Assembly: GCA_963750165.1 (NCBI GenBank)
Contig: CAVVPN010000007.1
Span: 1-19,672, forward strand
From: an uncultured Gemmataceae bacterium
GTDB lineage: Bacteria; Planctomycetota; Planctomycetia; Gemmatales; Gemmataceae
Length of the DNA: 19,672 nucleotides
Reading direction: 5' to 3'
The position numbers and the translations under genes were made by a program. Shown here piece after piece: positions 1-18,143 of this stretch. Below the pieces are notes generated by a model. It was not told the DNA's origin. It was given only the letters and a program-made list of their open reading frames with translations, and made no database searches. Within the stretch, counting starts at the first letter, position 1; each line of letters starts with the position of its first letter.

Positions 1-231
1 TCGCGCTATAGCCAAACTTACCACGGCCCGATTTTTACTAACCCGCTATCATGTCAGAGTTTCCGTCGCGTGGGGTGAGCCTTTCAACTCCACGACATTT
101 TAACGATTTTACTTCTTTTTCTGACATTTTTCAATGGCTACTCTGACATTCTCCGATAGCCGGACAGAAGGGCGCTCGCCCAGGATCAAAACAAGCAAGC
201 AAATTATACCGGTTATACGCACCCGCGAAAG

Positions 232-468
232 GTGTACGTCTGCTACGGAACCGTATTCGGTCATGCGAAGGACGAGATGCAAATCATCATGGTCCAGACC
301 GCCCGCGACCTGCTGGCGGAGGGCGACATTCTGGACGGCATCGCCCGGTGGAGTGGGGAGCACCGAAGACGCTGGGAGCAATCCAAATACTTCAAACTCT
401 ACCAGGCGGAGAAGGCCGCGGGGCGGAACCCACGCAAGGCCTTTGCTCAGCGCCGCTGGGAGATGTAG
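232..468 (+). CDS. Small hypothetical protein or gene fragment
   Basis: 78-aa ORF with GC3-rich codons and protein-like composition. The frame is open from ~160 but has no clear RBS or ATG. Confidence 0.4.
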   Translation: MYVCYGTVFGHAKDEMQIIMVQTARDLLAEGDILDGIARWSGEHRRRWEQSKYFKLYQAEKAAGRNPRKAFAQRRWEM

Positions 469-599
469 GGGCCTGCTCAGCGAACGTGGGGAGACGCCGG
501 TGAGTGTCCTGGACGACGCTGCCATTCGCGGGGTCGAATCGGTCGGAGAGACGACAACCGTGTTGCAGACCAACCGAACCACGCACGCGCTCCTTTCCG

Positions 600-795
600 A
601 GTGGCCGGCCCCTTGAAAGGGTCGGTCGTGGCCTCGTAGATGAAGGCAGCCAGGAACTCTCGTTCTTGATCGGTCAGCACATGCTGAGAAATTGTCCGCT
701 GGCGAATTCCCGCCCGGTTCAATGAAATCGGCGTCCGGTCCCCTTCCCAGGATGCGCTGACCCCGCCACAGCGTCGTGCCAGGAAACACGATCAT
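600..795 (-). pseudogene. Two abutting short gene fragments (MIVFPGTTLWRGQRILGRGPDADFIEPGG... and VLTDQEREFLAAFIYEATTDPFKGPAT...)
   Basis: Two protein-like stretches in different minus-strand frames that each degrade after 25-40 aa. An extended -10-like TGgTATAGT lies at 810-818 (-), just upstream of the ATG at 795. Confidence 0.35.
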
Positions 796-3193: not shown

Positions 3194-3341
3194 CCTTACC
3201 TGCGGCGCGTGCGGGTTGCGAGGTACGTTGCCGGGGCGGGAAACTGTCGGAAGCTGGGCGGACGGTGCGGGCAGCAGCGGGAGTGACGGCCGAGAGGGGT
3301 TCACGCACGGTTTGCACACGAGTGGGCGGCGGGCACGGGCT

Positions 3342-3526
3342 GACCACCAGCGGCCTGCACTGCCACAGCAAGGGGGCCAAGGGGGCCAAGGGGGCCAACT
3401 TTTTCGCACGTCGAGAATTGGCGCCCTTGCCCCGCACGGCTGGTACGGCGCGACCACCAGCGGCGGCGGTTGCCACAGCAAGAACGCCAAGAACGCCAAC
3501 TTTTTCATACGTCGAGATTCGCCGCC
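3342..3526. repeat. Degenerate tandem duplication (110-bp period) with internal 9-bp tandem repeats
   Basis: GACCACCAGCGGC...TGCCACAGCAAG...GCCAACTTTTTC...ACGTCGAGA starts at 3342 and at 3452. Internal CAAGGGGGC x3 versus CAAGAACGC x2. Confidence 0.85.
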
Positions 3527-3584
3527 TGGCAGCGCCGGCCTGCCGTTCGTGGTCCACACAACTGCGAACCACTCTAAATCGCCT

Positions 3585-3684
3585 GAAGCGCATGGCCCTG
3601 GAGGTGTAGCGGAAGTCGCCAGACTTCCGTCCGATACTTCTCGGAAGTCTGGCGACTTCCGCTACACCTCCAGGCCATGCGTTC
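3585..3684. repeat. REPIN-like doublet of GTAG-led palindromes
   Basis: Perfect 33-bp inverted arms 3597-3629 and 3642-3674 with a 12-nt loop. Each arm contains GTAG followed by the hairpin CGGAAGTC-GCCA-GACTTCCG. Confidence 0.9.
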
Positions 3685-4607: not shown

Positions 4608-4649
4608 CCGCACTTTAAAGCGGATTGCGGTTAGGTGTAGCGGTCTGGG

Positions 4650-4708
4650 GTAGGTGCCGCGAGCCGAGCGGCACCCGCTGCGGGTCCGGCTCGGCTCGCC
4701 GGACCTAC
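4650..4708. repeat. REPIN-like inverted pair of GTAG-led palindromes
   Basis: GTAGGTGCCGCGAGCCGAGCGGCACC (4650-4675) and inverted GTAGGTCCGGCGAGCCGAGCCGGACC (4708-4683). Enclosed by TGTAGCGG (4636-4643) and CCGCTACA (4712-4719). Confidence 0.88.
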
Positions 4709-4736
4709 TACCCGCTACAGTCGTCTGCGAACCGAT

Positions 4737-4863
4737 CTAGAGCGGTTCGCGTTTGGGTAGCGCACAAGTCGTGGGACGGCTCTCCAGAGCCGTCAGCGTT
4801 CTCCCGACGGCTCTGGAGAGCCGTCCCACGACTTGTAGTCCACGCGACTGGGAACCGCTCTAG
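4737..4863. mobile_element. MITE-like element with CTAG-ended 12-bp terminal inverted repeats enclosing a REP doublet
   Basis: CTAGAGCGGTTC (4737-4748) and GAACCGCTCTAG (4852-4863). Inside are perfect 31-bp arms 4764-4794 and 4806-4836. Confidence 0.65.
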
Positions 4864-4953: not shown

Positions 4954-5850
4954 TCAGGGCGGCGCCGGCCGGCGCCGCTCCGTCGTGGCGTTGTTCATGC
5001 GGATCTGCATCCGGTGCAGCGCCAGGTTCGGAATCGGCCCCGACACGTTCGCCGCAATGCGATTGGTGACCGCCGCCGCCGTCGAGGAACCGTCGATGCA
5101 GCCATCCAGTTCGCTGGAGAGCACCATCTTCGCCCCCTTCTCAAGCGGGACGGTTTCCTTGCCGTACGGGATCGATTTGAGCGGCACCACAATCTCCAGG
5201 CGCAGCACGCCGAACTGTTTGCCGTCCTGCCGATACGCCTTGAGCAGCTTGCCCGTGATGGTGACGCCGGTCGGGTCAATGGCGAAGTCGCCCGGCACCG
5301 CCTTCATCGCCGCCGTGAGCAGGCCCGCGTCGATCTTCCAGGTGTCGCCCACCGCGACGGCCCTGGCCGGCACCAGCACCCGCACCATGTCGGTCAGTTG
5401 CTTCTTGTTGAACTCCTGGTCCAGCGGTGCCGCGGCCGGCCCGGCCAGTTCGCCGCCGCCCTCCACCTGGAAGTGATAGCGGGCGCCCTTTTTCTCAATC
5501 AGAACCGTCTTGCCCTGCAACGGCAGCGTCGTCGTTTTGCCATCAGTGGTGGTTTCGGCCGTGGTGTAGTGTCGCTTCAGCTTCACCGGCGGCCTGGCCA
5601 GCGACGGCCGATCCAGCAGCGTTTCGCGGTACACGTAGCGGATTTTGGTATCCACCGTCTTCAGGGGCGTGGCCTTGCCCTGCATGTCGATGATGCTGGG
5701 GCCGCCGCTCTCCGTTTCGGTTCGCTCAACCAGCTCGGGCTCGTCCTCGTCGGTCACTCGGAGTTTGATGGTGTATTTCTCCTGGGCCGGCGCCAGCGGC
5801 GCGGCCGCCAGCAGGGTCAGCACAATCAGCGCGGCGGTGCGGGGGGTCAT
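4954..5850 (-). CDS. Secreted hypothetical protein, one copy of a ~280-aa beta-rich domain
   Basis: AAGGAG RBS before the ATG at 5850. Signal peptide ends APA-QEK. Clear paralogy to both halves of 5971-7758. Confidence 0.88.
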   Translation of the reverse strand: MTPRTAALIVLTLLAAAPLAPAQEKYTIKLRVTDEDEPELVERTETESGGPSIIDMQGKATPLKTVDTKIRYVYRETLLDRPSLARPPVKLKRHYTTAETTTDGKTTTLPLQGKTVLIEKKGARYHFQVEGGGELAGPAAAPLDQEFNKKQLTDMVRVLVPARAVAVGDTWKIDAGLLTAAMKAVPGDFAIDPTGVTITGKLLKAYRQDGKQFGVLRLEIVVPLKSIPYGKETVPLEKGAKMVLSSELDGCIDGSSTAAAVTNRIAANVSGPIPNLALHRMQIRMNNATTERRRPAPP

Positions 5851-5876
5851 GGTCAAGGACTCCTTTGAAGTGGTGT

Positions 5877-5970: not shown

Positions 5971-7758
5971 TCACGGCTTCGGCAGCGCGGTGCGCGTCTC
6001 CGTCGTGGCGTTGCGCGTGTTCACCCGCATCCGCATCTCGGCACCGGGCACCGGGCCGATCAGGCTCAACTCCATCCGTTGCGTGACCGTGCCCAGCGCC
6101 GCACTGCCGTCAATGCACACGTCGAGGTCCAGGCCAATGACCAACTTGGCCCCCGGCTCCAGCTTCATGATCTTGCCGCCGCCCAGCGGCAGCACCCTGG
6201 GCGCCATCACGATTTCCATCGTCAGCACGCCGTACTGCCGGCCGTCCTTCCTGTACGCCTTGACCAGTTTGCCCGTGAACTTGAGGCTCTTCGGATCGAC
6301 CTCCATGCCGGCCATGCCCATGCCCTGAGCCACCTGTTTCACCGTGTCGCCGGCCTGCCAGGTTCCGCCGACCCCGAGCGGTTCGGTCGGCAGCAGCAGG
6401 TCCATCAATTCGCGAAGATCGCCCGACTGGCTGAAACTCTTCTCGAGCGCCGCCGCGTCCTTGCCGGTCAGCTCGGCGCTGCCCTCGATCTGGTAGCGGT
6501 ACTTGCCGTCCTTCTTCTCGATGAGCACCGTCTTGCCCTGGATCGGCAGCGGCTTCATCTTGCGACCGGGTTCGGCCGCCTCTGCCTGGGTGTACACGCG
6601 CTTCAACTTCGTCGGCGTGGTGGCTCCCGGCAGCTGTTCAAGGATGGTTTCGCGGTAGACGAACTTGTAGGTCTTGCTCTCCAGGTTCGGAATCTGTAAT
6701 TCGGTGCCGTTCTTGTCAATCATCTTGCCGTCGTTGAGTTCCTGCAGCGTCCGCTGCACCAGGGCGCTGTCGCCCTGGGCGGGCCGCTTGATCTGGAAGT
6801 TGTACTTGCCCGGCGGCGCCGGCTTCACCGGCAAATCCTTGACGATGTTCGGCTTCTCCTTCGGGTCCACCTCACGGTGCGACTCGGTCATTTGCTTGGC
6901 GCTGGCGATGCGGAGGCGGGACTGGTCGGGCTGGACGTGGAGCATGACAATCTTCATGCTCCCCGTGTCCGTGCCGTCGGTCACACTGCCGTCGATGCAC
7001 CGATCCATGACCGCGTTGAGGGAAAACCCATCCCCCTTGCCGGCCTTTTCGACCTTCCCCTTGACCCGATACTCCTTGATCGGCATCACGACCGTCATGT
7101 GCATCACGCCGAAGCGGTGGCCGTCCTTCTGGTACACCTTGACCAGTTTGGCGGTGGCCTTGAGGTTGTCCTGGTCCGGTTGCGGGCCGTCCTCGCCGGG
7201 CTTGAAGCCCCTGAGCAAGAGGGCCTTGTCCACCGCCCAGGTTTCACCGATGGCCACCGGCCGGCCCGGCAGGATCAGATCGTCACTGGGCTTCTCGTCG
7301 TCCTTGCGGAAGGTGAATTTTCCCTTGAGCGCCTGAACGACCTCGACGGGCAACTCCTTGCCCTGGGCGTCCCGGAAGCGGTACTCCTTGTCGGTGCGCT
7401 CGACCACCGCGGTCAGCCCGTGCAGCGGCAGCGGCTTCGTGAGGCCATTCACGGTTTCCTCGGCGCGTTCGTAGGTCACCTGAATCCGCTTCGCCCAGTA
7501 AGCGCCCGCGGCCTGCTCCAGGTAGTGTTTGCGGCTGACGACAGTGGTGCTCTTGCGGATCTTGATGGGGTCGCCGGTCGCCTTGCCGTCGGCGTCCACG
7601 GGAATGAGGGTGGTGTCTTCCGTCTCGGTGAAGTGCCCCAGATCGGCGAGGCCCTGCACGGAGTTCTTGAGCTTGATCTCGTACTTCTGCTGGGCCTGGG
7701 CCGGCAGGGCGGCCGCCAGCGCGACCAGCAGGCCGGCGCAATGAAGGCGTGCGGGCAT
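5971..7758 (-). CDS. Secreted hypothetical protein with two tandem copies of the same domain
   Basis: GGAG RBS before the ATG at 7758. Signal peptide ends AQA-QQK. Repeated motifs LPL/IxGxTxxxE, P..P..vG.TW, KLVKxYxKDGxxxGV, DxCIDGS. Confidence 0.88.
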   Translation of the reverse strand: MPARLHCAGLLVALAAALPAQAQQKYEIKLKNSVQGLADLGHFTETEDTTLIPVDADGKATGDPIKIRKSTTVVSRKHYLEQAAGAYWAKRIQVTYERAEETVNGLTKPLPLHGLTAVVERTDKEYRFRDAQGKELPVEVVQALKGKFTFRKDDEKPSDDLILPGRPVAIGETWAVDKALLLRGFKPGEDGPQPDQDNLKATAKLVKVYQKDGHRFGVMHMTVVMPIKEYRVKGKVEKAGKGDGFSLNAVMDRCIDGSVTDGTDTGSMKIVMLHVQPDQSRLRIASAKQMTESHREVDPKEKPNIVKDLPVKPAPPGKYNFQIKRPAQGDSALVQRTLQELNDGKMIDKNGTELQIPNLESKTYKFVYRETILEQLPGATTPTKLKRVYTQAEAAEPGRKMKPLPIQGKTVLIEKKDGKYRYQIEGSAELTGKDAAALEKSFSQSGDLRELMDLLLPTEPLGVGGTWQAGDTVKQVAQGMGMAGMEVDPKSLKFTGKLVKAYRKDGRQYGVLTMEIVMAPRVLPLGGGKIMKLEPGAKLVIGLDLDVCIDGSAALGTVTQRMELSLIGPVPGAEMRMRVNTRNATTETRTALPKP

Positions 7759-8084
7759 GGATTGCTCCAGTTTGGGATGAAGCGGGCGGCCAGACGGCGG
7801 CGCGACCCTTGGAGGATGATTGTACGGCAATAGGATGAAGGAGGTGAGAAAAAAACCGCCGCCCGCCGGTGGCTCCCTGGGGAGGGTGCAGTCGTTCGGG
7901 ACAGGGAATCGGCGGGCACCCCAGCAGGAAAAGGGGGTGTGTGAAATGAAATGAAACGAAAGCCTTCCCTGGCACTATTGATATTGTACCGCCGAGCCCG
8001 CTTCACGGGAATGGCGAACGCCCTCCCCGCCGTTGCCACGATCCATCGACCTCGCGCCCCGTTGGAGGACGCCGCGCGCCGACC

Positions 8085-11495
<3,411 letters not shown>

Positions 11496-11705: not shown

Positions 11706-12483
11706 ATGGAATACCAGGAATACTGCGATCTCATCGCGGAACACTACCGGCCGCGGCACCGCCACCTGTACATCCTCCGTGAGGAGATGTTCGTGCCGGA
11801 CCTGGCACAGGCCGTGCGCGCCGGCACCCCGGAGGCGCTGCGGCAGCTGTGCCGCGAGGTCCACCCCCAGGTCTACACCTTCGACATGCTGCGGCCGCGC
11901 TTCTGTGCCGAGTTGCTGGAGGAGGCTGCTTGCTTCGAGCAGTGGTGCGCCCAGACTGAACTGCCGCTCCTCCGCCCGAACACGATGAACAACTACGGCA
12001 CCGTCCTCGACAGCTTCGGCTTCGCCCCCGCGCTGCAGCAATTGATGGCGGAATACGTCCTGCCCTTCTCAGCGTTGTTTTACCCCGACGTGGGCGGCGA
12101 CTCCCTCGACAGTCATCACGGCTTCATCGTGGAGTACGCGCACCGGCAAGGACACGGCGCTCGACTTCCATGTCGATGCCAGCGATGTGACGCTCAACGT
12201 CTGCCTGGGCAAGCAGTTCACCGGCGGCACGCTGTTCTTCCGCGGCGTGCGCTGCGCCCTGCACCAGCAGACGGACTGGCACTCGCATGAGGAGTTTGAG
12301 GTCGTCCATGTCCCGGGCCGGGCCGTGCTGCACCGGGGCAAGCATCGCCATGGCGCCAACCCCATCACTGGCGGCGCGCGGCACAACCTGATCCTGTGGT
12401 GCTACAGTTCGCGCTTTGAACAGGAGCGCGACGCGACGCACTGCCCCCGCTGGTGCGGCGAACCGGGGCCAGATGGAGAATGA
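11706..12483 (+). CDS. 2OG-Fe(II) oxygenase, OGFOD2/ICU11-like, with one frameshift near 12140
   Basis: Removing one base in GCGCACC joins ...HHGFIVEYA to TGKDTALDFHVDASDVTLNVCLG... (258 aa). HxD = HVD, distal H in HRHGA, 2OG-binding R in RHNLILW. Confidence 0.88.
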
Positions 12484-13347: not shown

Positions 13348-15990
13348 ATGGCGTCCACGAACATCACCGAAATCCCGCAAGCCGCGCCGGCGGAAGCGGC
13401 CGAGGCGGACGGCCACAAACCGTACGTCCCCGATTATGTGACCATGCCGGAGTTCACCTGGTCGGCAGTGCTGGTCGGCGCCGTGCTCGGCATCATTTTC
13501 GGAGCGTCGTCGCTGTACCTGGTGCTCAAGGTGGGGCTGACCGTGTCGGCGTCGATCCCGGTGGCGGTCCTGTCGATCACCCTGTTCCGCGTGTTCTCGA
13601 AACTGCCCTTCATCCGCCGGGCGAACATCCTGGAAAACAACATCGTCCAGACCACCGGCTCGGCCGGCGAGTCGATCGCCTTCGGCGTCGGCGTCACCAT
13701 GCCGGCACTGATGCTGCTCGGCTTCGAGATGGACATCGGCCGCGTCATGGTCGTGTCCGTACTCGGCGGCCTCCTGGGCATTTTGATGATGATCCCGCTG
13801 CGGCGGGCCTTCATCGTCAAGCAGCACGGCACCCTGATCTACCCGGAAGGGACCGCCTGCGCGGACGTGCTCATCGTCGGCGAGCAGGGCGGGGCCACGG
13901 CCAAGACGGTCTTCATCGGCTTCGGCGTCGCCTTCGTGTACCAGTTTCTGTGGCAGGGCCTGAAGCTGTGGAAGGACACGGCCAGCAAGTCGCTGAGCTG
14001 GTTCCGCGGAGCGGTGCCGGCCATTGAGGTGAACCCGGCCCTGCTCGGCGTCGGCTACATCATCGGCACGCGCATCGCCTGTGTCATGGTGGCCGGCGGC
14101 GTGCTGTCGGCGTTCGTGCTGACGCCGGCCATCCGCCTGTTCGGCGACGGTCTGGCGCAACCGCTCTACCCCGCCAAGACGCTCATCAAGGACATGGACG
14201 AGGAGCAGATCTGGAAGGAGTACATCCTCTACATCGGCGCGGGCGCGGTGGCCGCGGGCGGCATCATCAGCCTGTTCCAGGCGCTGCCGCTGATCCTGTC
14301 CTCGCTCCGTGCCGGGCTGCGGGACCTGCCGATTTTCCAGCAAAAAACCGACGGCAACGGCGCCGGTACGGCCCGCACCGACCGCGACCTGCCGCTGTGG
14401 TTCGTGGGCGTCGGCACCCTCGGCGTGGTGGCGGCCATCTGGTTGACACGGCCGCTGCACGCGGTCTTGCCCTGGGTGCCGAACCTGGAAATGAACCCGC
14501 TCGGGGCGGTCCTCATCGTGCTGTTCGGCTTCCTGTTCGTCACGGTGTCGTCGCGCATCACCGGCGAAATCGGTTCGTCGTCGAACCCCATCTCCGGCAT
14601 GACCGTGGCCACCTTGCTGCTGACGTGTCTGATTTTCCTGCTGATCGGCTGGACGCGGCCGGAAGACCGCCTGACCGCCCTGTCCGTGGCCGCGGTGGTA
14701 TGCATCGCGGCCTCCAACGGCGGCACCACGTCGCAGGACTTGAAGACCGGCTACCTGGTCGGCGCCACGCCGAAATACCAGCAACTGGCCATCCTCATCG
14801 GCGCCCTGTCGTCGGCGCTGGTGATTGGCTGGATCCTCATCAGCCTCAACGACGCCTACACCGTGTACTCGCGCAAGGACCTGCCCGAGTTGAAAACCCC
14901 GGTGGAGGTGCGCGACCTGCCCGAAGGCCACGCCCCCGGCGACGACTCCACCTATTTCATCTGGCACGCGGCGGAGGGCAACGAGCAGGGCGTGCCGCAG
15001 GGCAAATATCTCCTCGACGCTCAGGGCCGGATTCAGTATCTGGTGGACCCCGGCATCAACGGCAAGCGGTCGCGGCGTGACGACGGCAGCGAAGTCATCC
15101 GCTTCAAGGCGCCGAAGGCGCAACTGATGTCGCTGATCACGGACGGCATTTTGCAGCAAAAATTGCCGTGGGCGCTGGTGCTGCTCGGCGTGTCCATCGC
15201 GGTGGTGCTGGAGTTGTGCGGCGTGTCGTCGCTGGCGTTCGCGGTGGGCGTGTACCTGCCGTTGTCCTCGTCGGCGCCGATCTTCGTGGGCGGCCTGGTC
15301 CGCTACGCCGCCGACCGCTGGGTGCGCAAGCCCGCGGGCGCGGCGCCCCACTCCGCGACGGAATCCGACAGCAGCCCGGGGGTGTTGATGTCCACGGGCT
15401 ACATCGCCGGCGGCGCCATCGCCGGCGTGGTGATCGGCTTTCTGTCGTTCAGCGACACCATCCCGCAGGCGCTGGCCCACTGGCAGTACAATACCTATGC
15501 CAGCCGGGGGGAACTGTCCTTTGACGAGTTGGCCCGCGAAGCCGCCCGGGACGAACTCGGTTGGACCGTGAAAGAGGAGTTGACGAAGGAGGAGAAGCAG
15601 GAGGTGGAGAAGTTGGCGGGCGAGATCAAGGAACTGAACGGCACCCTGCCGCAAAAGTACGTCACCGTGCCCGCGCGGACGGAACTAAAACTGCCCGGCA
15701 ACAAAACCTACCGGACGATGGAGGAGGCGTACCTACGGGACATCGCCGCCGAGCAACTCGGCAGCGCCGACAAGGCGCAGCTGCTCTACGAAGACAACAA
15801 GAAGCGGTTGCAGTTACCGGAGCGTCTGCCCGTGGGCGTAGCGGTGAAGCTGCCGCAAAGTAATACGCCGGCGCTGATCGCGTTCGGCGTGCTGACGTTG
15901 TTCCTGGTTCTGGTGGGCACGGGCTGGTTGCTGGCGACCCCCGCCGTGGCCGCGCCCCGCACGCCGCCGACGGCCGGCGGCAACCCCTGA
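13348..15990 (+). CDS. OPT-family oligopeptide transporter with extra soluble domains
   Basis: LKVGLTVSASIP, ENNIVQTTGSAGES, YPEGTACA, SSNPISGMT, SQDLKTGYLVGATP, AFAVGVYLPL. Many TM helices. GGGAG RBS. Confidence 0.95.
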   Translation: MASTNITEIPQAAPAEAAEADGHKPYVPDYVTMPEFTWSAVLVGAVLGIIFGASSLYLVLKVGLTVSASIPVAVLSITLFRVFSKLPFIRRANILENNIVQTTGSAGESIAFGVGVTMPALMLLGFEMDIGRVMVVSVLGGLLGILMMIPLRRAFIVKQHGTLIYPEGTACADVLIVGEQGGATAKTVFIGFGVAFVYQFLWQGLKLWKDTASKSLSWFRGAVPAIEVNPALLGVGYIIGTRIACVMVAGGVLSAFVLTPAIRLFGDGLAQPLYPAKTLIKDMDEEQIWKEYILYIGAGAVAAGGIISLFQALPLILSSLRAGLRDLPIFQQKTDGNGAGTARTDRDLPLWFVGVGTLGVVAAIWLTRPLHAVLPWVPNLEMNPLGAVLIVLFGFLFVTVSSRITGEIGSSSNPISGMTVATLLLTCLIFLLIGWTRPEDRLTALSVAAVVCIAASNGGTTSQDLKTGYLVGATPKYQQLAILIGALSSALVIGWILISLNDAYTVYSRKDLPELKTPVEVRDLPEGHAPGDDSTYFIWHAAEGNEQGVPQGKYLLDAQGRIQYLVDPGINGKRSRRDDGSEVIRFKAPKAQLMSLITDGILQQKLPWALVLLGVSIAVVLELCGVSSLAFAVGVYLPLSSSAPIFVGGLVRYAADRWVRKPAGAAPHSATESDSSPGVLMSTGYIAGGAIAGVVIGFLSFSDTIPQALAHWQYNTYASRGELSFDELAREAARDELGWTVKEELTKEEKQEVEKLAGEIKELNGTLPQKYVTVPARTELKLPGNKTYRTMEEAYLRDIAAEQLGSADKAQLLYEDNKKRLQLPERLPVGVAVKLPQSNTPALIAFGVLTLFLVLVGTGWLLATPAVAAPRTPPTAGGNP

Positions 15991-16047: not shown

Positions 16048-18143
16048 ATGCACCCCCGTTTCCGCGCGGCCCTGTTGCTGGCCGCCTCTGGTATCCTCAT
16101 GCTCACGACAAACGACCGTGCCGCTGCCGACGAGGGCATGTGGCTGTTCAACAACCCGCCGCGCAAGCTCCTCAAGGACAGGTACGGCTTCGAGAAGCCC
16201 GCCGACTGGTACGAGCACGTGCAGAAGTCGTCCGTGCGCTTCAACAGCGGCGGCTCCGGCTCGTTCATTTCCGCCGACGGCCTGGTCATGACCAACCACC
16301 ACGTCGGCCTGGAGACGCTGCAAAAGGTCAGCAGCAAGGACAAGGACTACGTGAAGGACGGCTTCTACGCCAAGACCCGCGCCGACGAGATCAAGGCGGT
16401 GGACCTGGAGCTGAACATCCTGATGGGCATCGTGGACGTGACCAAACAGGTGCAGGACGCGATCGACCCGAAGATGTCGCCCGAGCAGGCTTTCAAGGCC
16501 AGGCGGGCGGTCATCGCCAAGATCGAGCAGGAGTCCCTGAAAAAGACCGGGCTGCGCAGCGATGTCGTCACGCTCTACCAGGGCAACAAGTTCAACCTGT
16601 ACCGCTACAAGCGCTACACGGACGTGCGGCTGGTGTTCGCCCCGGAGCAGCAGATCGCCTTCTATGGCGGCGACGCCGACAACTTCGCCTACCCGCGCTA
16701 CGACCTGGATGTCTGCTTCTTCCGCGTCTACGAGAACGACAAGCCGGCGAAGATCGAGCATTATCTGAAGTGGAGCCCGAAGGGCGTCTCGGACGGCGAG
16801 TTGGTGTTCGTCTCCGGCAACCCGGGCAAGACGGATCGGCTGACGACGGTGGCGGAGCTGGAGTACCTGCGCGACACGGGCTTCCCGTACCTGCTGCAGC
16901 GGCTGTACCGCTGGGAGGTGCTGTACTCGGTTTACAGCGGCTACGGCGCGGAGCACAAGCGCAAGATTAAAGACAGCCTGTTCAGCGTCGCCAACAGCCG
17001 CAAGGCGCGGGACGGCGGCCTGGCCGCCCTGCTCGACCCGGAGTTCATGGCCACCAAGAAGGCGCACGAGGCGAAGCTGCGCAAGGCGGTCGCGGCCAAC
17101 CCGAAACTGCGCAACCTGGCGGGCGCTGGGAGACGATCGCCAAGGTACAGCCGCTCCGGGCGGCCAACATCAAACGCTACACGGTGCTGGAGGGCGGTGC
17201 CGGCTTCAACACGACCCTGTTCGGCTATGCCCGCACGCTGGTGCGGGCCGCCGAGGAACACACCAAGCCGAACGGCGAGCGGTTGTCCGAGTTCGCCGAC
17301 GCGAACAAGAAGTCACTGGAGCTCAGGCTGTTCTCGAGCCGGCCGCTGTACGCGGACCTGGAGACGGTCAAGCTCGCGGACAGTTTGACGTTCCTGGCGG
17401 AGACGTTGAAGGCGGAGAACAAGTTGGTCAAGCAGGTGCTGGCCGGCAAGTCGCCCGGCGAGCGGGCCGCAGAGCTGATTAACGGCACGAAGTTGTTCGA
17501 CGTGCAGGCCCGCAAGGCCCTGTACAAGGGCGGCAAGGAGGCGATCACGAAGTCGGACGACCCGCTGATCAAACTGGCCCTGCTGGTGGACCCGGCGGCG
17601 CGGGCAGTCCGGGAGCTGATGGAAACGAAGGTGGTGGAGGTGAAGGAGCAGGCGTACGACAAGGTGGCGAAGGCGAAGTTCGCGGTGGAAGGCACGGACA
17701 CGTATCCGGACGCGACGTTCACGCTGCGGCTGTCGTTCGGCACGGTGAAGGGCTACGAGGAGGGCGGCAAAAAGATCCCGTTCCAGACGACGTTCGGCGG
17801 CCTGTACGAGTACGCGGAGTCGAAGGGCTATGTGTATCCGTTCGACCTGCCGAAGCGCTGGGAGAAGCGCAAGGGCAAGCTGGACCTGAAGACGCCGTTC
17901 AACTTCGTCTGCACGGCGGACATCATCGGCGGCAATTCCGGCAGTCCGGTGATCAACGCCAACGCGGAGGTGGTGGGGCTGATCTTCGACGGCAACATTC
18001 AGTCGCTGGCGTGGGACTTCCTGTACACCGACCGGCAGGCGCGGGCGGTGGCGGTGAACTCGCAGGCGCTGACCGAGGCGGTGCGGGCCGTCTACGACGC
18101 CGGCGACCTGGCGGATGAGATTGTCGGCACCCGCCGGAAGTGA
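16048..18143 (+). CDS. S46-family dipeptidyl peptidase (DPP7/DAP BII-like), with one frameshift near 17126
   Basis: Signal peptide then ADEGMWL, GSGSFISADGLVMTNHH, DVRLVFAP, PDATFTLRLSFG, DIIGGNSGSP. Adding one base at GGCGC/TGG gives a continuous 698-aa protein. Confidence 0.93.

Follow-up and report, generated by a model that had tools for sequence, protein, structure and literature searches.

A LysM-derived insert with a predicted strand-swapped fold in an OPT-family transporter of Planctomycetia

The DNA analysed here (19,672 nucleotides; referred to below as the window) is the entire 19.7-kb contig CAVVPN010000007.1 from the genome (9.6 Mb, 66% GC) of an uncultured Gemmataceae bacterium, and the gene under study, on the plus strand at 13348..15990, encodes an OPT-family transporter of 880 residues in which a LysM-like insert precedes an extra C-terminal transmembrane helix. 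The reading frame exceeds both curated profile cut-offs for the family, those of Pfam OPT (PF03169; E 1e-92, 311.9 bits versus a cut-off of 25.8) and TIGR00733 (335.4 bits versus 182.5). The AlphaFold2 model of the whole protein (pLDDT 91.9, pTM 0.90) contains, by fold comparison with HvYS1 (7wst), the core-plus-scaffold fold of YS1 (Foldseek E 2e-14; VIA Z 34.2, root-mean-square deviation (rmsd) 4.3, 541 residues aligned), a relationship found by fold alone, since a phmmer search with the full protein against PDB sequences gave no match. All features described for this gene lie on the plus strand. The last helix in common with YS1 (15376..15444, residues 677-699, a helix in the model) runs from inside to outside, and the extra last transmembrane helix (15862..15933, hydropathy 2.31), which leaves the C-terminus inside, corresponds to the additional C-terminal transmembrane segment described for OPT subclusters 4A-4D (PMC3061005). 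A second, beta-rich loop domain of about 85 residues (14854..15111, residues 503-588, strands in the AlphaFold2 model) is common to this bacterial OPT group whether or not the insert is present, as the similar loop length indicates; it had no match in Pfam or the ESM Atlas, and it sits where YS1 has an outer loop of the moving core. The one further match to the insert in this genome lies in the overlapping end of contig C4 and is 100% identical; a paralogue or second gene copy is thus ruled out, the match being an assembly overlap. No promoter or terminator signals were found above chance.

A preliminary description, made from the letters alone, had recognized two tandem LysM-like stretches before the last helix (15493-15696 and 15706-15855), the first more degenerate and with a helical insert. 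Both stretches are present in frame at these coordinates, and the LysM-like character of the tandem, its fusion into an OPT transporter and the greater degeneracy of the first copy are all borne out by profile, language-model and fold searches. The Pfam LysM profile (PF01476), which had been suggested as a check, matched neither the OPT protein nor the insert nor either repeat, and among 49 family members it matched one (E 0.006, below the gathering cut-off of 20.9 bits). On repeat 2, NCBIfam PRK11198 (Kbp-type LysM) gave E 0.003 and 17.9 bits over model positions 93-148 only; the complete BON + LysM architecture of that model, with its cut-off of 134 bits, is not reached by the insert. A family profile of the insert had Kbp (7pvc) as its best match in the PDB (E 8e-4), and in the ESM Atlas the top match was a LysM/phage-tail-X cluster (0.91), the ten best named matches all belonging to the LysM/phage-tail-X family or clan. 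A phmmer search of 1.84 billion proteins with the insert returned 125 matches. Of these, 57 are of the free LysM type (55 above the Pfam cut-off, many membrane-anchored) and 68 belong to the insert type, 22 carrying Pfam OPT and the rest being short fragments in which no further domain was recognised; the longer homologues were OPT proteins in 7 of 7 cases. In the structure prediction that the preliminary description had asked for, AlphaFold2 gives two beta-alpha-alpha-beta units in the insert (pLDDT 93.5), and in a VIA comparison of the insert model with 482 chains the nine best rows were LysM domains (rmsd 2.2-3.3), with low Z values of 3.3-3.6. It counts against the assignment that unrelated helical chains tie with LysMs in a wide VIA search, which returned no chain with a Z of 5 or more, and Foldseek found nothing for the insert model at E 0.001 or better. 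The assignment of repeat 1 comes from its structure, the conserved Asn and the strand motif, without a profile match of its own, and the Asn is conserved at 90% and 100% in the two repeats, repeat 2 additionally conserving Leu (96%) and Ala (96%). The likeness of the insert to LysM exceeds chance, and the insert is almost certainly LysM-derived.

Its module is of the long LysM type represented by Kbp (7pvc), the phage-tail-X LysMs and those of contractile-system baseplates (7aeb, 8kea, 9gtp, 6u5b) and the free membrane-anchored LysMs of planctomycetes, with which it has in common the length, the buried Leu, Ala and Asn, the 10-residue hinge and the C-terminal strand motif; it differs from them in the loss of the G-D-T motif, in a link of 5 residues instead of 17-97 between the repeats, and in the predicted exchange of the final strands. 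Kbp binds potassium, and the insert, being without a BON domain, offers no basis for potassium binding. Potassium sensing in the manner of Kbp was thus ruled out.

The two repeats had been taken as separate copies following one another, whereas the models predict a strand swap that had been missed. In both AlphaFold2 (insert alone: pTM 0.83) and ESMFold2, the repeats exchange their final strands to give one split and one circularly permuted LysM, so that each predicted LysM domain is built from both repeats and not from one contiguous module of 43-50 residues. The conserved WQY anchor and repeat 1 body (15481..15639, residues 712-764; strand, helix, variable helical insert, helix, Asn) would form half of the membrane-proximal split LysM; the hinge and strand arm of repeat 1 (15640..15696, residues 765-783) are predicted to complete the repeat 2 body (15703..15798, residues 786-817) as a circularly permuted LysM; and, beyond the tight turn between the repeats (15694..15708), which is the hairpin tip and the place of further insertions in relatives, the hinge and strand arm of repeat 2 (15799..15855, residues 818-836) are predicted to return and complete repeat 1. 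In both AlphaFold2 models, strands of matching length are found across the repeats at 11-13/127-129, 18/122, 68-69/89-90 and 74-77/81-84 (insert numbering). Consistent with this arrangement, single solved LysM chains are aligned by VIA to both ends of the insert (about 7..136, 44-64 residues) and not to repeat 2, and the sequential Foldseek match between insert and Kbp has an rmsd of 14.4.

When the repeats were given to ESMFold2 as separate chains, the score was 0.75 against 0.00 for the best control, the mark for a complex being reached by 116 of 157 solved pairs and 2 of 215 mismatched pairs; the runs shared at least 97% of contacts, with a partner pLDDT of at least 87. The surest pairs include 75-83, 74-84, 69-90, 12-128 and 19-122 (insert numbering), with 73-85 and 59-128 also named, and they follow the register that would result from each arm completing the LysM of the other repeat. 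Because protein halves tend to pass such a complex test, it is the register that is informative, not the score. The repeat-repeat link, counted from the arm Leu to the next Tyr, is exactly 5 residues in 53 of 69 sequences, and covariation, redone without one gappy column that had dominated the raw signal (64 rows), gave a contrast of 0.68 toward the swap (off-register mean 0.21, sd 0.20, with 0 of 63 reaching 0.68); this covariation is weak, and both predictors and covariation use overlapping alignments and are not independent. On these models we consider a strand-swapped fold likely, the repeat pair being predicted by two programs as one rigid unit with both chain ends back at the membrane. 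CBS-domain pairs may provide a precedent for native intertwined tandems.

The preliminary description would have been contradicted by, among other things, a cytoplasmic loop that does not bind glycans. Lys and Arg make up a fraction of 0.20 of the loop that precedes the penultimate helix and 0.22 of the stretch following the last helix (where Asp/Glu is 0.10), compared with 0.06-0.07 at either end of the insert. In the VIA alignment residues 33..719 of the OPT model correspond to 46..678 of YS1, the first strand of repeat 1 falling where YS1 ends in its strand S1 (model 719 = YS1 678). The insert begins at the place of S1, because the match to YS1 extends up to that strand. In YS1 this C-terminal strand is part of the static scaffold and makes up the sheet of the dimer (PMC9691689), and we infer from its disulfide link that it lies outside. 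By charge bias and YS1 overlay, the loop with the insert is thus very probably periplasmic and not cytoplasmic, and in the model the insert would stand on the static scaffold domain, not on the moving core, at the place of the YS1 dimer strand. For planctomycetes, a Gram-negative plan with an enlarged periplasm is supported (PMC5394234).

A search with the insert profile among 401 genomes of the class, this genome included, found the insert in 25 (24 of the 400 others) at E < 1e-19; the next matches, below a gap and starting from 1e-12, were ordinary LysM proteins (five inspected). All 24 matches in other genomes lie inside OPT frames. These other carriers comprise 3 genomes from other orders, 2 of 9 from the sister family and 19 of 88 from the same family; named loci identify the class as Planctomycetia, and gene content points to Gemmataceae as the family. 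A search of 300 further genomes from the phylum gave no match to the insert at E 1e-14, and the insert was also absent from all 62 rows on the non-planctomycete side of the tree, and in a metagenome scan was confirmed in 0 of 598 candidate stretches. Among 80 related loci from named genomes, 78 have no such insert, the two exceptions being Planctomycetia. The tail after the penultimate helix is 198 residues here and mostly 60-100 in the related loci (three truncated), the OPT loop being about 120 residues longer than in most relatives. On a core tree of 140 sequences including 28 carriers (six truncated and seven duplicate rows left out), the carriers need 5 changes, a single carrier clade is rejected by the approximately unbiased test (p-AU 9e-41, 30 rows), and the insert tree broadly parallels the core groups with weak deep support; one early gain followed by repeated losses is the simplest account. 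One record titled Candidatus Kuenenia (L009) groups tightly with Isosphaeraceae-type OPT genes and may be a mislabelled bin or a transfer.

The repeat number in relatives ranges from 2 to 5. In five members with 3 or 5 repeats (P0008, P0009, P0010, P0012 and P0019), the hinges alternate in length (10, 7, 10 or 10, 7, 13, 7, 10 residues), a pattern that points to a fixed out-and-back geometry. Two others (P0035 and P0101) carry a second copy, about 50 residues long, of the beta-rich loop domain between the two LysM repeats. In an OPT protein of Acidobacteriota (L034), the same loop holds an insert that is unrelated, charged and about 75 residues long, showing that independent insertions are tolerated at this site. 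Nonsynonymous (dN) and synonymous (dS) rates were obtained for 11 of 12 pairs, all from genomes without a Mur ligase: in the 4 pairs for which dS could be estimated the insert had a dN/dS of 0.20-0.50, its dN was 0.09-0.50 in the 7 more in which dS was saturated, and its dN was 2.2-3.6 times that of the core. Judged from these rates, the insert is under purifying selection in genomes without detected standard wall genes.

The preliminary description had proposed, from the binding of LysM to N-acetylglucosamine (GlcNAc) polymers, that the insert could anchor the transporter to the wall. The loop motif G-D-T before the first helix (G11-D12-T13 of AtlA) is, however, not kept, occurring in 1 of 55 first repeats and 0 of 70 second repeats versus 102 of 132 free LysMs, with Thr alone in 51% of repeat 2, whereas the buried residues are retained despite this loss. 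Furthermore, this genome has no match to a Mur ligase or transpeptidase, and neither a Mur ligase, nor MraY over its cut-off, nor a transpeptidase was found in 22 of the 25 carrier genomes (88-100% complete), this one included; all three families are present in the other three carriers (G025, G251 and G175) and in 10 control bacteria. Loss of wall-synthesis genes has been reported for part of this class (PMC12673574). Of 42 genomes of this order, 6 have an ordinary Pfam LysM protein, versus 18 of 18 from outside the order, and among the 22 carriers without wall genes 19 are also without one; the rarity of such proteins in this order suggests that the usual ligand is gone. Wall anchoring is thus not supported, with G-D-T lost and wall genes not found in most carriers, and the insert probably does something other than grip the cell wall.

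Directly downstream of the transporter gene lies a gene for an S46 dipeptidyl peptidase (16048..18143, plus strand; Pfam S46 E 1e-114 and 1e-80 for its pieces), read in two frames with a change near 17184-17190; it is also split in the overlapping copy on contig C4, through either an assembly error or real decay. Among carrier loci, the S46 gene directly follows OPT in 14 of the 24 that could be tested, compared with 23 of 39 loci of the class without the insert, and a specific link between the insert and S46 is ruled out by these counts. In Porphyromonas, S46 enzymes produce dipeptides in the periplasm (PMC8048996). The presumed pocket motifs, compared in 48 carrier and 99 non-carrier rows (23-33 of the carrier rows covering the motifs), are almost invariant in both groups; in about half of the carrier rows, apparently the 18-row clade L143-L161, Ala and Ser replace the conserved Ser462 and Asp464 of the pocket helix. 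No glycan-processing or glycan-recycling gene recurs among the 71 neighbours scanned. Because the pocket motifs and the S46 neighbour are common to insert-less relatives, the cargo is probably peptides, and the insert does not appear to alter what is transported. Proton-coupled uptake of short peptides would fit both the S46 neighbour and the earlier survey of bacterial OPT proteins (PMC3061005).

It is against this background that a mechanism can be proposed. A probably proton-coupled elevator transporter of the YS1 fold (the fold being modelled, the mechanism and cargo deduced) would import short peptides, in many cases the products of the periplasmic S46 dipeptidyl peptidase whose gene is adjacent. 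An ancestor in Planctomycetia would have taken up a long LysM module of the Kbp/phage-tail-X type in the periplasmic loop before the last helix, and two repeats joined by a tight turn would swap their final strands, placing the split LysM next to the membrane and the circularly permuted one farther out, in a stalk that relatives extend to 3-5 repeats. Standing on the static scaffold, this stalk may brace the transporter dimer or dock a periplasmic or envelope protein, and it would not anchor the transporter to peptidoglycan, would take no part in substrate choice and would be dispensable for transport. We lean tentatively toward such a rigid protein-contact stalk, by analogy with the baseplate LysMs, as a reading that falls a little short of probable; in a phage baseplate, LysM is encircled by proteins (PMC10966104). 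Several observations weigh against it. Three of the 25 carriers do have all three wall gene families, and absence from incomplete genomes, or of enzymes that may be very divergent, is not proof of loss; peptidoglycan components have been reported in Gemmata (PMC12673574). Since the contacts of LysM with sugar are largely main-chain (PMC4083421), loss of G-D-T does not exclude binding, and next to the groove of the outer domain, insert position 66 holds a conserved aromatic residue (Tyr, Trp or Phe in 87%). The only Pfam LysM protein of this genome (L183, G000:C12) is small, membrane-anchored and proline-rich, with an intact G-D-T. Finally, 10 of the 24 testable carrier loci are without an adjacent S46 gene, the peptidase being no obvious partner.

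The swapped stalk may instead bind, through its main chain, a GlcNAc-containing polymer, either a non-standard wall polymer or periplasmic chitin fragments, and thereby position the transporter at the envelope, extra repeats adding avidity. This possible, if doubtful, role would be in keeping with the retained core fold residues and groove geometry, with the variable repeat number and the aromatic at position 66, with the persistence of an ordinary membrane-anchored LysM in this genome, with LysM binding being mainly through backbone amides and additive with module number (PMC4083421), and with the chitin use and peptidoglycan components reported for Gemmataceae (PMC12673574); the survival of G-D-T in 1 of 125 insert repeats, the scarcity of ordinary LysM proteins in the order compared with genomes outside it, and the lack of any recurring glycan-processing gene among the neighbours speak against it. 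A natively strand-swapped LysM that grows by circularly permuted units into an adjustable rigid stalk and binds an envelope polymer or protein layer of planctomycetes that have lost the standard peptidoglycan genes appears unlikely. An ordinary peptidoglycan anchor tying the inner-membrane transporter to the sacculus, the main idea of the preliminary description, is improbable: the LysM ancestry and periplasmic position agree with it, and it may have been the ancestral role, because the gene of this genome groups with those of the three carriers that have wall genes, but the other 22 carriers are without all three families, an 18-member clade from genomes without wall genes keeps the insert under selection, and the G-D-T motif is gone.

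Capture of muropeptides or chito-oligomers for delivery to the transporter, which had likewise been suggested, is not supported and is very improbable; the insert does lie on the side to which the YS1 cavity opens, but it stands on the scaffold and not on the moving core, the pocket motifs are the same with and without it (except for two positions in one subclade), and the conserved neighbour is a dipeptidyl peptidase in carriers and non-carriers alike, with no recycling gene recurring nearby. It is hardly probable, too, that the insert is a functionless relic, kept since it must fold for the last helix to insert. Its loss or absence in close sister genes, seen in the 5 tree changes and the rejected single clade, and its evolution at 2.2-3.6 times the rate of the core would be expected of a relic, yet deletion is evidently easy and the insert has nonetheless been retained across deep branches with dN/dS < 1, has expanded to 5 repeats and has gained further domains at its tip. 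As for the fold, the swap might be a prediction artefact and the insert two ordinary LysM beads, which we regard as unlikely. In most members with two repeats, each hinge keeps the ordinary length of 10 residues, the predictors share an alignment signal, the covariation from 64 rows is weak, and tandem domain swaps were, up to 2019, described as misfolding for which no structure had been solved (PMC6863430); on the other side, two programs, one of them without the covalent link, gave the same residue register, the conserved 5-residue link is the length required by a hairpin in the LysM register, and the isolated repeat pair reaches pTM 0.83.

The transporter is worth comparing with the known systems. 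HvYS1 (PDB 7wsr/7wst) has the same fold with core and scaffold domains at 17-19% identity, but it ends at strand S1, whereas the OPT protein goes on beyond that point with the LysM stalk and a further helix, has the extra beta-rich loop domain and probably carries peptides, the cargo of HvYS1 being iron-phytosiderophore. The extra C-terminal segment is shared with bacterial OPT subclusters 4A-4D, and in subcluster 4A the gene lies upstream of a dipeptidyl aminopeptidase, as here (Gomolplitinant and Saier 2011, PMC3061005); in that survey only two fused domains are given, both peptidases, and LysM is unmentioned. In keeping with the preliminary description, which knew of no OPT-LysM fusion, none was found in the open-licence literature, LysM being absent from the two OPT surveys searched, and no strand-swapped LysM tandem was found in the open-licence literature, subscription papers lying outside this scope. 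The peptidoglycan-binding LysM tandems of Enterococcus AtlA (PMC4083421) and Thermus P60 (4uz2/4uz3) have the same fold and a variable repeat number (4uz2 versus the insert model: VIA Z 3.6, rmsd 2.2, 44 aligned). The AtlA modules are described as independent, with 16-23-residue linkers and no quaternary structure (PMC4083421), whereas the insert pair is predicted to be interlocked and is without equivalents of AtlA G11-D12.

In the tandem domain swap described by Lafita et al. (2019, PMC6863430), as in the insert model, the central domain is circularly permuted and the terminal domain is assembled from both ends; that swap is described as a misfolded state without a solved structure, whereas the swap of the insert would be a native, conserved state. 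The OPT and LysM parts are each known, but neither their fusion nor a swapped LysM tandem had a counterpart in the open-licence literature searched. If true, a native tandem swap in a soluble piece of 120 residues, which is easily expressed, would supply the structure called missing in 2019 (PMC6863430), and if the swapped stalk binds an envelope polymer or layer, it would be both a stable natural tandem swap and a probe for the wall composition of these bacteria. A LysM-derived module under selection where wall genes and most ordinary LysMs were not found makes the envelope question testable, and a LysM-like pattern should not by default be annotated as peptidoglycan binding.

Elsewhere in the window, an OGFOD2-like gene (11706-12483) is read in two frames. 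Three dispersed repeats (3293-3580, 3603-3668 and 4616-4863) have many copies across the genome, one being about 290 bp long with copies 80-95% alike, another 66 bp, and the third having a 126-bp part that is identical in many places. A short repeat with few other sites (9748-9879) forms an in-frame insertion inside the carB reading frame. On the minus strand, two adjacent genes (4954-5856 and 5971-7830) contain three copies, one and two respectively, of one domain of about 280 residues, which is unannotated, without a Pfam match and probably exported.

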